Source: Podospora anserina
Lineage: Eukaryota
Assembly (NCBI GenBank): GCA_017654855.1
Contig: CM030332.1
Location: forward strand, 1,922,001-1,986,000
Length of the DNA: 64,000 nt
Direction of reading: 5' to 3'
Part shown: in pieces, positions 30,357 to 35,544 of the stretch
Numbering within the stretch: position 1 is the stretch's first letter
How the letters are laid out: every line of letters begins with the position of its first letter
The notes under the pieces: generated by a model
Seen by the model: the letters and a program-made list of their open reading frames with translations, nothing else
What the model was told of the DNA's origin: nothing
Databases searched by the model: none
Made by a program: the position numbers and the translations under genes

Positions 30357-32665
30357 ATGTCGACAATACAGCAACTCAAAAACTTCATCCGTCATGGTAT
30401 GTAGCTTGTCCCCTCTCCGCTGGGCTGTTTTGTGCGCCGCCAGCACCGGGAAGCAGGTGCTGCAGATCACAGCGTGCGACTGCTACTCAGTGGCTTCGTC
30501 CCAAATAACGGAACTCGAAACTGATATCACCGTCACTGTCACAGGCAAACAAGCTCGAGCTGCCAATGCTGACGACTCTGCCCGCACAAAACATGAGCAC
30601 TCTCCTCCCCATTCGCAAGCCCATGCGAAGCAGCACAATATGGCGCCAGCAGTTTCGGAGCCTGTGTACGGAGCGGGTGCCCCACGACAAAACCACGTCG
30701 ATGCCTATTCGACTGCCGGAGATGCCCAAAACAGAGTGGCCCAGGCCGGCCATGTAGCCGCGCACCATGTCGAACCAGCCCAGGGTGTCAGCAGCAAGAC
30801 AAAGAAGAGGGTACCTGACGAAAACATCGCCAAGTTGGTCGCCGAAGAGAATGCCGACAAGAATAAGCTTCCGAGGTATCAAGGTCTCGAGCGCTGGCAA
30901 CTTGTTGAAAAGATGGGAGACGGCGCCTTCAGCAACGTATACCGCGCCCGCGACCTGCAAGGCCAACACGGAGAGGTGGCCATCAAGGTCGTTCGCAAGT
31001 TCGAGATGAACAACATGCAGGTACGTGATATAGCCTGATTCCAGCCTCTTCTTCGTTCCTACCCACGCTTCCCTCTCCTCCTCTCCTATCCTCTCCCTTC
31101 ATTTCCTTTCCTTTTGTTTTTTCTTTTCCTCCGAGTCCCCCTTACCAACATGCGGGACCCGTTTTAGAGCAACAAGCATCTCCATCCGGATTTCAAGCCA
31201 AAGGCTCCCAAAGCAGCAGAGGTGCGAGAAATTTCTTTTCCTTTGTCCCAAGCGCTGTGTTTGTACTTGCAAGCGCATATGTTCAGTCTCTGTGTTCTCA
31301 GTGAACTAACCGCCTGCTTAGCGGGCAAACATTCTCAAAGAAGTTCAGATTATGAAGCAACTCGACCACCCCAATATTGTCAAGTTGATCGACTTTTCCG
31401 AGTCCCAGCACTATTACTTTATTATTCTGGAGCTGGCTCCAGGTGGCGAGCTGTTCCATCAGATCGTTCGCCTGACCTACTTCAGCGAGGAGCTCTCCCG
31501 TCATGTTATCGTCCAAGTGGCCAAGGCGCTTGAGCACCTCCACGAAGAAAAGGGAATCGTTCATCGGTAGGTAGTCTCATGAACTCCTCGTGGCTTGGCA
31601 GTCGTTGTTTGTTAACAATCTACCAGTGATATCAAGCCTGAAAATATTCTTTTCAGCCCCATCCCGATGGTGCCCTCGAAGCACCCGAAGCCCAAGCAAC
31701 CGGGCGACGAGGACAAGGTAGACGAGGGAGAGTTCATCAAAGGGGTGGGTGCTGGAGGTATTGGCCAGATCAAAATCGCAGACTTTGGCCTCTCCAAGAT
31801 TGTTTGGGATAACCAGACCATGACGCCATGCGGTACTGTTGGTTATACCGCTCCCGAAATCGTCAAGGATGAGCGGTACTCAAAGTCAGTTGATATGTGG
31901 GCGCTTGGCTGTGTGCTTTACACCATGTTGTGCGGTTTCCCGCCATTCTACGACGAGAGTATCGAGGTGCTCACCGAGAAGGTTGCCAAGGGGCAGTACA
32001 CCTTCCTCTCCCCTTGGTGGGATGACATCAGCAAGTCGGCCCAGGATTTGATCTCACATCTTCTCTGCGTCGATCCCGAGCAGCGATACACCATCAAGGA
32101 GTTCTTGGCTCATCCCTGGATTCGCGAGTCTGGTCCTACACCACGTGACGAGAAGAAGTCGGCCATGTCGTCAGACGGTGTTTTGAGGGCGTTCGATGCC
32201 ACCAAGCTTGTGGACGGCGACAAGCGCTACGACTTCCGCTCGCCTGCTGCGGTCAATCTGCGTGAGGTGTTTGACGTTGGATACGCAGTCCACAGACAGG
32301 AAGAAGAGGGCAAAAGAAGGAAGCAAATTGGTGGAAAGGCTGGCGTTGATCGTCTTGCCGAGCTGGATGAAGATGCTGAGATGGAGGAGGCACCTGCAGG
32401 CTCGACTCAGCAAATCGAGCAAAGCATGCGCAACACTCAGATTAAGGATCACGAGCAGCGCGGGCGCGATCGATCTCGGAAACCCCATCCTCCGCCTGCC
32501 GCGGCTGAGCAGAAGGGTTATGGTCAGCATTCGGCTACTGTCGCCGCCGCCGCAAGACAGCAAGTTCGTGAACGTCAACGACAGAAGGGTGTTTTCGAGT
32601 TGAACCTTGATGGAGCTACATTATTGGGACGTCGCGGTGCAAAGCCTGCGACTCGGGTGGCGTAG
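30357..32665 (+). CDS. srk1: CAMK-family MAPK-activated protein kinase (Srk1/Rck2 orthologue); exons 30357-30396, 30545-31020, 31168-31221, 31322-31566, 31627-32665
   Basis: N-terminus MSTIQQLKNFIRHG; MGDGAFSNVY, VAIKVVRK, HR|DIKPEN, GVGAGGIGQIKIADFGLSK, TPCGTVGYTAPE and NLREVFDVGYAVHR. All introns are canonical. Confidence 0.93.
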
Positions 32666-33657
32666 AGAGCTCCGGAGCACGAGGATGTCCGCGGGGAGGA
32701 TAGGTTGCAGACAGGCGACGGCAGCGTCAGCCCTTCTGTGCGGCCAGAGGAACTTCCAACACCAATGTTGGAGGTCCCACCAGAGGTTGAGTTCTCTGCT
32801 AATGACCTCAAGGCCTTGGCAGAGACTGTCAGCATCAATGTGAGGGATGGCAGCGAAGGGAATTCGAGGGAGTAACATGGGTTATGGAGTTATGCGTCGG
32901 TGGGACTGGAAGTGGTGCATTTCTGGGAAAGCGTGTGACGGGTAGACACTCTAGGAGGACATGGGCTTCAAGTACAGCTCGGGTGCTCTCTTCTCTGCAT
33001 CAATTTCTTCTTCTTTTCTTCAGGCAATGCATTGCGGTTTCGGTGTAGTGTAAAGGTACCCTATATGAGAGATATCATGGGCGGTGTTAGCGGCAATCGT
33101 TCTTAGTTTACTGTCAATACTTCAAAGCTCACTGGATCGTTTTGTCGTGACATATGATGAGCTCTCCGTTTAATGGCCGCCACATGGCATCTTGGAGTTC
33201 CGAGTGTGGTACCCCAGATCTCTTGTCTCGGACAGTCCTCAATATCGATCAAAGGGGGTTTTACCCGAAACCATGTCTCATTTGGATCCATGGCAGTAGA
33301 ACAATGGGTGGATGCAGGGATTTACATGTAAATGGAACACCATTCCGTTCCTGTGCCCTCTCGTCTTCCATCTGGGAGAAGTTCATGCTCTAAATACCTT
33401 GGTCCATTCCATGAAATTGAAACAAAATTGTCATTACTGCCTCTCAACAACCCTGAAATTCCTACTGTGAAATGTTGGCAGGCGACAATCGAGTGGCGAT
33501 TCCAGTCAGAACTCCTTCGTGGATGCGCATTTGTAGAGGTTCTTTCACGTATATATCTTCTTGGGATCTTCTCCTGTCAAGAACTGTCTAACCAGATCCC
33601 CACCGTTCCTTTACTCGTCTCCAGCTTACACCTACTTCCTGATCCCTCACCGTTGCC

Positions 33658-35544
33658 ATGGCTGACTTAACCAACACCTTCCCAGCCTTCTCCCTCGCCG
33701 GGGTTGCCAATGCAAATGGCTACTGCAGTCTCGCTCTGGCAGAGGCGGTACTGGGATGCGGGACCCTTGATATCGATCTGGGGGGCAGCTCGTTCAGGGC
33801 CGATATTCTGCCTGACAGAATCATCATCTCTGCTACTGAACCGCTCGAGGGGGATGCTTTTCGTGCAGAGGGCAGCTCCACCACCGAGACCGCCGAGACG
33901 ACAAGCAGTGCGACAGGCGTTTCTTCTTTGGTATACCGATTCGCACCACCAGCTGGTCCGGGTGGGCTGTTGTGGGCGCTTGACCTGCAGCAGGCCTCTA
34001 CGTCGACGATTCGATCGACTGTGACATCTACCCGGACGAGCACGAGGACTTCGAAGTCGACTTCTACTTCTACCTCGACTAGGACTTCGACCAGGCCGAC
34101 GACTTCGACATTGACGGTTAGGGCTACTTCGACATCTACTGCCAGGTCTGCTTCTATTTCCGCCGCTAGGTCCGCCTCAACTAGATCTACTTCAACATCA
34201 ACCTCGAGGTCGACTTCCACCTCGACATCGCGATCTACCTTGACACCAAGGCCATCCACCACGTCAACGTCTATTCCAACTGTCAGGTCAGCGTCTACTT
34301 CGACCGTGAGGCCAACCACAACCATCAGATCAACTTCGACCTCGATAAGAACCTCGACCAGGACCTCCACGTCCACCTCGACATCCACCGTAACTCGGAG
34401 ATTCCCCTTTCTGACAATCGGCAGAAGTGCCGCTTCGTCAACCGTTGCACCCGCAGCCATCACCGGCCCCAATTTCCCTGGCGCCCCTCGCTTCCCTCCA
34501 GGAAGAACACTCCATACCTCGTCCTCCTCCTCTTCTCCTGCAACCGCCCCCGTAGCACCGCCCGTCTCCCCAACACGACTCCCCGTTCAAGATCTCCTAT
34601 CCCTCCACGGGGTCCTCAACACCATCCTCGGCCGACGCTCCTACCGCGCCAAGGCACAAGACAAGGACGAACCCGAGCTCAACACCCCCAAAGGCAGCAG
34701 CAACCTCCCCGGCCCCATCCCTCCTGCCTCTCAGGCCGAGGGCGACCAGCCCGATCTGGCCAACAATGCCACCGAACTCATCTCCTCGTCTTGCCCCCGG
34801 CCTGGCGAGTCCAAGCTCGTCGACATCAACATCGACTTGTCGCGCATCAACATCGATCTTGACGTTTATCTCGACATTCTTGGCGGTTCGGCTTCTTCGT
34901 CTGGTGGTGGTGGTCTTGTCTCTGGTTTGCTTGATGGGATTCTCGGTCGGCGGGATCTGAAGGCAAAGGCTGAGGAGAAGGCTGGGGAGGCGAGGGAAAG
35001 GGCTCAGGAGCTCAGGGACCGTCTCAGGGCTGATGCTCGGGAGAAAAAGGAGCGGGTGTTGAAGAAGACGTATGAGGCTAGGTGTGGTGCTGTTCTTGCT
35101 GTTCCCACTGCTGTCTCGTCAGCTGCTCCTTCGGCAACAAGCACCGGGGCTGCTCCTCCTCCTCGTCCTGCCAAGGGTAATAACCGGCTGAGTCGGCCTG
35201 AGCTGCCAGCGGGGGAGGTCACTGAGACGGTTGTTACTGTTGAGGAGGTCAGTGAGGAGGTTGTAGTGGAGGAGTGTATTCTGACGTGTGAGCGGGCGTC
35301 GGTGAAGGCGAGTGTCGAGGCTGGGGAGGTGAGGGGGTGTCTTGGGGTTACGGTGAGGAGGAGGGCGGGGGTGGATAATTGTGTGTATTTTGTTGGTGGG
35401 GTGGAGGTGGAGGATTTGGAGGTTGTGTTGTTGATTGAGGAGGAGGTTCAGGGTGGTAGGTTGGGTGAGGAGGTGGACGAGGACGAGGACGAGGATCTGA
35501 GGAGTGATTCTTTTGTTCCTGTTGGGAGGGTTAGGAGGGAGTAG
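33658..35544 (+). CDS. Ser/Thr-rich (mucin-like) hypothetical protein with a Cys-containing C-terminal domain
   Basis: 628-aa intronless ORF with TATATA about 110 bp upstream; STSTS repeats at about 33995-34400; two ILGRR-x3-AKA units; C-terminal C-x3-C...C...C. No clear signal peptide. Confidence 0.7.
   Translation: MADLTNTFPAFSLAGVANANGYCSLALAEAVLGCGTLDIDLGGSSFRADILPDRIIISATEPLEGDAFRAEGSSTTETAETTSSATGVSSLVYRFAPPAGPGGLLWALDLQQASTSTIRSTVTSTRTSTRTSKSTSTSTSTRTSTRPTTSTLTVRATSTSTARSASISAARSASTRSTSTSTSRSTSTSTSRSTLTPRPSTTSTSIPTVRSASTSTVRPTTTIRSTSTSIRTSTRTSTSTSTSTVTRRFPFLTIGRSAASSTVAPAAITGPNFPGAPRFPPGRTLHTSSSSSSPATAPVAPPVSPTRLPVQDLLSLHGVLNTILGRRSYRAKAQDKDEPELNTPKGSSNLPGPIPPASQAEGDQPDLANNATELISSSCPRPGESKLVDINIDLSRINIDLDVYLDILGGSASSSGGGGLVSGLLDGILGRRDLKAKAEEKAGEARERAQELRDRLRADAREKKERVLKKTYEARCGAVLAVPTAVSSAAPSATSTGAAPPPRPAKGNNRLSRPELPAGEVTETVVTVEEVSEEVVVEECILTCERASVKASVEAGEVRGCLGVTVRRRAGVDNCVYFVGGVEVEDLEVVLLIEEEVQGGRLGEEVDEDEDEDLRSDSFVPVGRVRRE

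Follow-up and report, generated by a model that had tools for sequence, protein, structure and literature searches.

Stop-loss editing, the removal of a stop codon from an mRNA by adenosine-to-inosine (A-to-I) deamination, has been reported for 323-403 genes of Fusarium graminearum, with hundreds of events on record in Fusarium and Neurospora and some of them conserved between species, and the mRNA editing machinery (Tad2-Tad3-Ame1) has been described as an innovation of the Sordariomycetes (PMC11087585). The closest described case is the kinase DBF2, whose stop-loss editing is conserved in F. graminearum and other Sordariomycetes and yields a tail that destabilises the kinase (PMC13123824). 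Whether such events are selected or mere error is under dispute (PMC13123824; see also the exchange PMC13684035 / PMC13684032). Here, we analyse the TAG stop codon of a Srk1/Rck2-type kinase gene in a 64,000-nucleotide stretch of Podospora anserina DNA (contig CM030332.1, in the following called the window) and propose that this TAG, at 32663-32665 on the forward strand, is probably a conserved site of A-to-I stop-loss editing within the mRNA of this kinase. The mechanism itself is known; what our analysis would add is a candidate site in this gene.

The assignment of the gene rests on its homologues. The open reading frame (ORF) of the last exon has a Pfam Pkinase match (E 4e-37), and the best database match comes from Podospora pseudopauciseta, where the protein is named "MAPK-activated protein kinase Srk1" (MAPK, mitogen-activated protein kinase) and shows 100% identity across the part that matches. 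The next matches are all from Sordariales, so that the matches of the host kinase fit a lineage with Tad2-Tad3-Ame1 mRNA editing. Source names of the homologues are either MAPK-activated protein kinase Srk1 or CAMK1-RCK, which points to a CAMK kinase of the Srk1/Rck2 type, with activation by a MAPK suggested by the family label. An initial annotation, made from the letters of the window, had claimed that a kinase ORF ends here in a TAG followed by 69 open codons up to a TAA at 32873-32875, and that the extension is acidic, coding-like and equipped with SP/TP motifs. Sequence (GTG GCG TAG AGA GCT CCG and onwards) and peptide proved to be exactly as described, the kinase is encoded by a five-exon gene with RNA support, and the extension contains 16 D/E against 7 K/R residues together with one SP and one TP.

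Stop-codon identity and the predicted hairpin

Metagenome contigs were scanned with an alignment of the C-terminal 154 residues, and the best 80 of 271 relatives were used; merging of near-identical loci at 95% identity left 62 distinct sequences, including the window. We divided these into a first, Sordariomycete-type set (L001-L045 plus the window; LLG(R/K)R-type C-termini, 56-80% identity, 36 distinct sequences) and a second, outgroup set (L046-L080; 46-54% identity, 26 distinct sequences). The nearest named proteins of the first set are from Cladorrhinum (99%), Staphylotrichum (98%), Immersiella (88%), Coniochaeta (88-89%), Lomentospora (80%), Sarocladium (84-96%), and Fusarium (92-100%), and those of the second set are from Pleosporales or other Dothideomycetes (up to 89%), if anything close exists at all (otherwise ~60%).

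Within the first set, the stop codon is TAG in 34 of 36 distinct sequences (by rows, in 42 of 45 plus the window), and 25 of 27 single-linkage clusters at 80% nucleotide identity are uniformly TAG. Conservation of the TAG in relatives, which the initial annotation had proposed as a check, was therefore borne out, and orthologues with TAA or TGA stops or with a frameshifted downstream sequence, which it had named as evidence to the contrary, amount to 2 of 36, both with TAA. The 26 sequences of the second set use TGA (16), TAG (6), and TAA (4). Directly before the stop, the four-fold degenerate base is scrambled across the first set (A in 14, T in 11, G in 6, and C in 4 of 35 sequences), and the fixed G of the TAG is therefore not a matter of inertia. 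The position of the stop is ancestral, because all 120 homologues listed for the kinase end 13-22 residues past an LLGRR motif (LLSRR in one of them), 88 of the 120 with RVA. None of the 360 listed annotated homologues (these 120 and 240 from a Hypocreales and a Dothideomycete set) extends beyond this stop, and neither a hard-wired TGG nor an assembled edited isoform was found among the same 120 + 120 + 120 proteins.

Minimum-free-energy folding of the window places the stop at the tip of a predicted stem-loop, in which an apical stem (32659-32661 paired with 32669-32671) carries a 7-nucleotide loop (32662-32668, G-UAG-AGA) on top of two bulged stem segments. When the relatives were folded from -20 to +22 around each stop (n = 35 in the first set, one locus being too short), 33 of 35 first-set sequences had the A of the stop within a predicted hairpin loop, compared to 12 of 25 in the second set (Fisher 6e-5) and to 159 of 358 (44%) other TAG triplets of the same loci (Fisher 2e-9). 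Several relatives have a long predicted stem of 8-12 contiguous pairs that joins the last codons of the gene to the first codons of the extension, and a closing pair for a 7-nucleotide loop is possible in 25 of 35.

Lineages differ in the register of the stem, and we therefore relied on folds of individual sequences and on swapping of the downstream arms between them. In the first set, native combinations were more stable than chimeric ones (-15.1 versus -11.9 kcal/mol; Wilcoxon 2e-5), while swapping was without effect on stability in the second set (p 0.32); by this measure, the arms of the predicted hairpin co-vary in the first set. Covariation in a fixed register was set aside as the main test because its excess over controls is modest: An 11-pair stem on the ungapped alignment has 55.3% of cells paired, compared to 48.8% in shuffles (0 of 500 reach the native value) and to 35-48% in slid registers. 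No Rfam family matched the region 32400-33200, even with E values up to 1 allowed.

The immediate context of the stop is U-A-G-A-G (32663-32667), so that the candidate adenosine has a U before it (-1) and a G one and three positions after it (+1 and +3). Across the first set, U at -1 is found in 35 of 35 sequences, as is inherent in any stop codon, and G at +1 in 33 of 35, which is the count of TAG itself; a purine occupies +2 in 31 and +3 in 30 of 35. Published fungal editing sites have U at -1 in more than 70% of cases, favour A or G at +1 and +3, and prefer hairpin loops, which are the same preferences as those of Tad2/Tad3 for A34 in tRNA (PMC11156358). The sequence context in the window matches these preferences, as the initial annotation had pointed out for U-A-G-A-G, and the A also has a predicted loop position, in a fold of unremarkable stability. 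According to a study of cis-elements, 62% of editing sites lie in hairpin loops and more stable hairpins are edited to higher levels; placement in a loop is therefore typical but not obligatory.

The reading frame beyond the stop

The length of the open frame adds little. At least 69 open codons are expected with a probability of 0.06 from 5000 dinucleotide shuffles of the 3' untranslated region (3'UTR), 0.107 from all 992 TAG triplets of the window, and 0.12 from the frequency of stop triplets, and the +1 frame is itself open for 58 codons after the stop. The initial annotation had called the length mildly unlikely at a probability of about 0.04; it remains weak evidence, scarcely beyond chance, with 0.06-0.12 as the computed range and 0.04 as too strong a figure. 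Since the +1 frame is equally open, we dropped ORF length as evidence for translation.

Composition is more telling. The GC content by codon position is.65/.46/.64 in the extension and.62/.43/.61 in the last coding exon. We trained a log-likelihood ratio (LLR) of codon usage on the kinase exons together with the window's long ORFs; for the extension it is +16.0 in frame 0 (the frame of the kinase) and -11.3 and -30.0 in the other two frames of the strand, and frame 0 of the forward strand scores highest of all six frames in this region. For comparison, real 69-codon coding segments score 11.6 +/- 7.0 and stop-free segments outside long ORFs 0.6 +/- 4.7, with 0.2% of the latter matching the score of the extension; the 3'UTR after the TAA drops to between -6.6 and -14.3. 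The codon usage of the extension is thus as good as that of real coding sequence, in frame 0 only, and the initial description of the tail as coding-like is confirmed.

For the relatives, the coding sequence of each set was pooled into a codon model for that set. Scored in this way, the extensions show the same tendency in the first set, where frame 0 is best in 18 of 31 cases (p 0.001 and 0.01 in comparison with the two remaining frames), and no significant difference between frames in the second set (frame 0 best in 12 of 24). The window, with 0.20 per codon in frame 0, gives one of the clearest signals of its set, and both TAA loci of the first set have a negative frame-0 score. Predicted frame-0 peptides are acidic, with 16% D+E, and have many S/T/P/G (36%) but few hydrophobic residues (20%).

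Extension peptides in frame 0 form 13 mutually matching pairs (best E 4e-27, 2e-21, and 4e-15), compared to 6 pairs in frame +1 (best 1.6e-6) and a single one in frame +2. Seven pairs with a DNA identity of at least 0.44 were aligned, and their internal gaps, some of which are shared events, measure 12, 3, 18, 3, 3, 6, 3, and 9 nucleotides, besides one further gap of 1 nucleotide near an end; one pair is gapless. In four pairs, the ratio of nonsynonymous to synonymous differences (pN/pS) is lowest in frame 0, with 0.56 (other frames 0.83 and 1.27), 0.42 (1.49 and 1.58), 0.58 (1.21 and 1.07), and 0.40 (5.3 and 1.13). Judging from these alignments, frame 0 of the extension is constrained in several relatives.

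Two observations on individual relatives stand apart from these comparisons. At L008, L032, L039, and L042, the +1 frame is open for 100-162 codons past the stop, far beyond the in-frame extension. In the Sarocladium-like L035 (1981-2130), the 50 codons that follow the TAG repeat, in tandem and in diverged form, the C-terminal coding segment of the gene (GYG.HSAAV...LNLDNATLLGKRGKK...), so that readthrough would append a second copy of this conserved segment.

The extension of the window has no Pfam match. AlphaFold2, run on the last 200 residues with the additional Trp and the extension (16 aligned sequences), returned no confident structure for the tail (mean confidence score, pLDDT, 51.8; tail 41-56), which is compatible with disorder but uninformative. 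Among 1.84 billion representative proteins, the extension peptide has three matches. One is the same ORF as called on a Logan contig, in a cluster of one member. Another, the 45-residue ORF P0363 from a Logan contig (matching 32747-32872, again a one-member cluster), was rejected as an orthologue because all of its differences are of C-to-T type (P to L, A to V, S to F, T to I, and R to W), a pattern that suggests bisulfite-converted reads or repeat-induced point mutation. The third match is an unrelated repeat protein and was likewise discarded.

Gene model and transcripts

Transcript data were available as assembled Logan contigs from four runs of unknown stage (X1, X12, X10, and X5), which belong to a total of 22 runs that contain the stretch (none recorded as RNA, 16 of them guessed to be RNA and 6 DNA-sized). 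All four proved to be RNA assemblies, as their contigs skip the four GT..AG introns of the kinase gene, which are spliced out in all four runs. The resulting spliced frame (Table 1) is open, includes the VAIK motif, and is 95.8% identical from end to end to a protein from Apiosordaria. Contigs of all four runs run continuously from 31626 to 33117-33131, with no intron that bypasses the TAG. It follows that the mature mRNA really does have its stop at this TAG and that all of the extension sits unspliced within a 3'UTR of ~466 nucleotides. Rare editing, stage, and strand are not visible in such assemblies.

Table 1. Features of the kinase gene and its 3' region (positions in the window)
Feature	Position	Strand	Remarks
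Srk1/Rck2-type kinase gene	30357..32665	+	617 aa, C-terminus ...ATRVA before the stop
Kinase exons 1-5	30357-30396, 30545-31020, 31168-31221, 31322-31566, 31627-32665	+	RNA contigs
Predicted stem-loop with the stop at its tip	32645..32684	+	Minimum-free-energy folds
Canonical stop TAG	32663..32665	+	Contains A32664, the candidate adenosine for editing (UAG to UIG, decoded as Trp)
In-frame extension	32666..32872	+	69 codons; after a Trp, would give 687 aa in total
TAA, stop of the extended frame	32873..32875	+	Codon score about zero beyond
Rest of the 3'UTR	32876..33131	+	RNA contig ends at 33117-33131

A few side observations concern the gene and its surroundings. The deposited 581-residue model (P0002) is without 36 residues of the 617-residue model, the VAIK motif included, and its annotation appears to have mis-spliced the 54-nucleotide exon at 31168-31221 and the end of exon 2 (window 31021-31321). 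At position 31705 in the last exon, the window has C and all four RNA runs have A, probably a strain difference, which accounts for part of the 0.96 word share of these runs. Just downstream of the kinase gene, a 633-codon open frame (33643-35544, forward strand) encodes STSTSTR-like Ser/Thr/Arg-rich repeats and an acidic end and is overlapped by several long antisense frames.

Alternatives, proposed mechanism, and comparison with known systems

A fixed TAG, its placement in a predicted loop after U, co-varying arms, a translated-looking frame, and restriction to one class of fungi together find one explanation in stop-loss editing. Several results weigh against it. The division into Sordariomycete-type and outgroup sets was made after the data had been seen, and first-set members other than those with the close named relatives given above reach just 59-78% identity to any named Sordariomycete; for some members of the sets, identity to any named protein is no higher than 59-70%. 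The hairpin of the window is no more stable than shuffled sequences (z -0.40), nor does its fold stand out from those with chimeric arms (-14.1 versus -14.3 kcal/mol, rank 0.50), and among the relatives the exact 7-nucleotide loop with the A in third place appears in just 4 of 35 minimum-energy folds. The median open length of the relatives' extensions is ~45 codons in frame and in the +1 frame alike. Selection on the extension, another check that the initial annotation had proposed, is borne out in part: The four pairs with frame-0 pN/pS of 0.40-0.58 speak for it, but Fusarium-type pairs are without constraint (0.76-1.24) and without a frame-0 codon signal, and the extension of the window cannot be aligned to that of the nearest available relative, a Cladorrhinum-like contig (37% DNA identity, out-of-frame gaps). 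Finally, no edit was seen at A32664, where the contigs of all four RNA runs carry A; this speaks neither for nor against editing because such contigs drop minority variants and the stage is unknown. The central claim of the initial annotation, a stop-loss editing event at this codon, is thus supported in part, with each tested indirect prediction favourable and A>G at 32664 itself unseen.

In this Podospora, the locus might instead be inert, its open frame a decaying relic or a product of chance and its editing, if there is any, functionless noise at a low level. The length of the frame alone (p 0.06-0.12), a hairpin no better than controls, and an extension that does not align with the nearest relative would all fit such a state. 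We nonetheless consider it unlikely, since the window retains the TAG, the full context, and the apical 7-nucleotide loop, since its frame-0 codon signal is reached by so few of the stop-free controls, and since the TAG is conserved across 25 of 27 deep clusters. Alternatively, the TAG in its hairpin might be conserved as an RNA element with another role, such as protein binding or the control of termination or mRNA stability, with the frame downstream untranslated. The strongest signals (TAG conservation, hairpin, co-varying arms) do concern the RNA, the extensions vary widely in length (6-112 codons) and sequence, the +1 frame is as open as frame 0, and the lack of an Rfam match leaves room for an undescribed element. 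Such an element would leave unexplained, though, why the window has frame-0 codon usage, why peptides are conserved in frame 0, why indels are in frame, why pN/pS is below 1 in frame 0 only, and why the G of the TAG is fixed rather than just any loop base; we regard this explanation as very unlikely.

Programmed translational readthrough, in which a near-cognate tRNA decodes the UAG without editing, would produce the same extended isoform and explains a coding-like, frame-0-constrained extension equally well. It also finds an echo outside the Sordariomycete-type set. At 12 of the 26 distinct second-set loci (L046, L051, L053, L054, L056, L060, L064, L065, L067, L068, L071, and L079), a C stands directly after the stop (TGA in 9, TAG in 3), mostly as part of CAA or CAG, and leads into an in-frame tail of 5-14 codons that ends in Asp-Trp-stop (DW tail); the same nucleotide motif is present out of frame in L052 and L070. 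Pleosporales-like loci make up seven of the 12, while the other five are ~60% identical to anything named; the DW tail occurs in none of the 120 annotated homologues listed for the second set. The pattern resembles conserved translational readthrough, in orthologues of this gene from outside the Sordariomycetes, and a search of the readthrough literature showed nothing on this kinase gene among the entries listed. For the first set, however, we consider readthrough quite unlikely. UAG followed by a purine is a strong termination context, while stop-C, CAR-YYA, and CUAG types are leaky, and known readthrough-stimulating structures lie downstream of the stop. The stop is here fixed as UAG instead of the leakier UGA, the next base is a purine in 31 of 35 sequences, and the window reads TAG AGA GCT, which is none of the leaky types. 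The hairpin encloses the stop instead of lying downstream of it, and because the stop sits in the loop, the 5' arm would already be unwound at the ribosome. Moreover, it is in the class with mRNA editing that a mixture of TGA and TAG gives way to a fixed TAG.

Stop-loss editing therefore remains our preferred explanation, and we picture it as follows. In vegetative cells, the mRNA is read to the TAG and gives the 617-residue kinase, with the gene model and stop described above. During fruiting-body development, Tad2/Tad3 with sexual-stage cofactors would deaminate A32664, which in the predicted fold is the third base of a 7-nucleotide loop and follows a U, in resemblance to A34 of the tRNA anticodon loop. 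The resulting UIG would be read as Trp, and ribosomes would go on for 69 codons to the TAA, producing a 687-residue isoform with an acidic, Ser/Thr/Pro/Gly-rich, and probably disordered tail. By analogy with Dbf2, this tail may lower the stability or dosage of the kinase at the fruiting stage. Another possibility is that the tail changes how accessible the conserved LNLDGATLLGRRG segment is, which lies among the last 22 residues of the normal protein and which we take to be a MAPK-docking motif. An altered C-terminal docking or localisation, as suggested in the initial annotation, is likewise a conjecture.

A broader scenario would connect both sets of relatives. The Srk1/Rck2 kinase of filamentous ascomycetes may long have had a conditional, C-terminally extended isoform whose means of bypassing the stop was replaced in evolution: readthrough with a short DW tail outside the Sordariomycetes, and within them a TAG in an anticodon-arm-like hairpin, sexual-stage A-to-I editing, and a longer, fast-evolving tail. 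We offer this tentatively and hold it to be rather doubtful. If true, stop-loss editing would here clearly be a product of selection and not an accident, and two recoding mechanisms would have served one gene; even by itself, a real readthrough event at the DW tail would offer a natural comparison of two recoding routes in the same gene.

In the full-text literature, we found no paper that links Srk1 with stop-loss editing, and for Rck2 nothing was listed beyond a review of Agaricomycete fruiting bodies, though supplementary gene lists may already contain an orthologue; Srk1/Rck2 is absent from the main text of the DBF2 study (PMC13123824). If our proposal is correct, the site would be a second well-supported conserved case after DBF2, spanning Sordariales-, Coniochaetales-, Microascales-, and Hypocreales-type sequences, and it would lie in a kinase of the stress-MAPK pathway. 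Deep conservation of the TAG with its predicted hairpin in this kinase bears on the dispute over adaptive stop-loss editing, and the site lends itself to a simple pair of alleles, an uneditable TAA and a constitutive TGG.

Of the known systems, DBF2 is the closest. As in our candidate, a TAG at the end of a kinase gene lies in a hairpin (a predicted one in our candidate) and is kept across Sordariomycetes, the extension is poorly conserved and of disorder type, and Tad2/Tad3 with sexual-stage cofactors has been proposed as the enzyme in both cases; DBF2 is, however, an NDR kinase and not a CAMK/MAPK-activated one, and its editing levels, tail destabilisation, and mutant phenotypes have been measured, whereas the kinase described here is known from sequence evidence (PMC13123824). 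White collar 1 of Sordaria macrospora would share with our candidate the change from UAG to UGG, besides the order Sordariales and a long C-terminal extension (131 residues, compared to 70 here), but its extension was seen as peptides and is reported to carry a domain, while ours has neither a Pfam match nor a confident fold (PMC6794485). Editing that corrects premature stops, as in PUK1, would have the same chemistry, a UAG target, membership in a kinase family, and a link to sexual development in common with our candidate, but there the stops interrupt a conserved kinase domain so that editing is required for any functional protein (PMC4817773). At the Srk1/Rck2-type locus, by contrast, the protein has ended at this stop since ancestral times, as it does in 360 of 360 listed annotated homologues, and the sequence beyond it is lineage-specific.

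The likeness to tRNA is one of position: By the standard numbering of A34 and the loop size of the tRNA anticodon loop, the window compares with its predicted A in third place of a 7-nucleotide loop and a purine three bases on. Editing of A34 by Tad2/Tad3 likewise acts on an A that follows a U in a hairpin loop (PMC11156358). What differs is the setting, a predicted hairpin in an mRNA, where the stem is short and imperfect and a tRNA body is missing. Stop-CAA/CAG readthrough, a motif known from plant viruses and yeast, resembles instead the outgroup orthologues, in which C comes after TGA or TAG and the conserved tail is short, and not the window, where AGA follows a stop that sits in a predicted loop.

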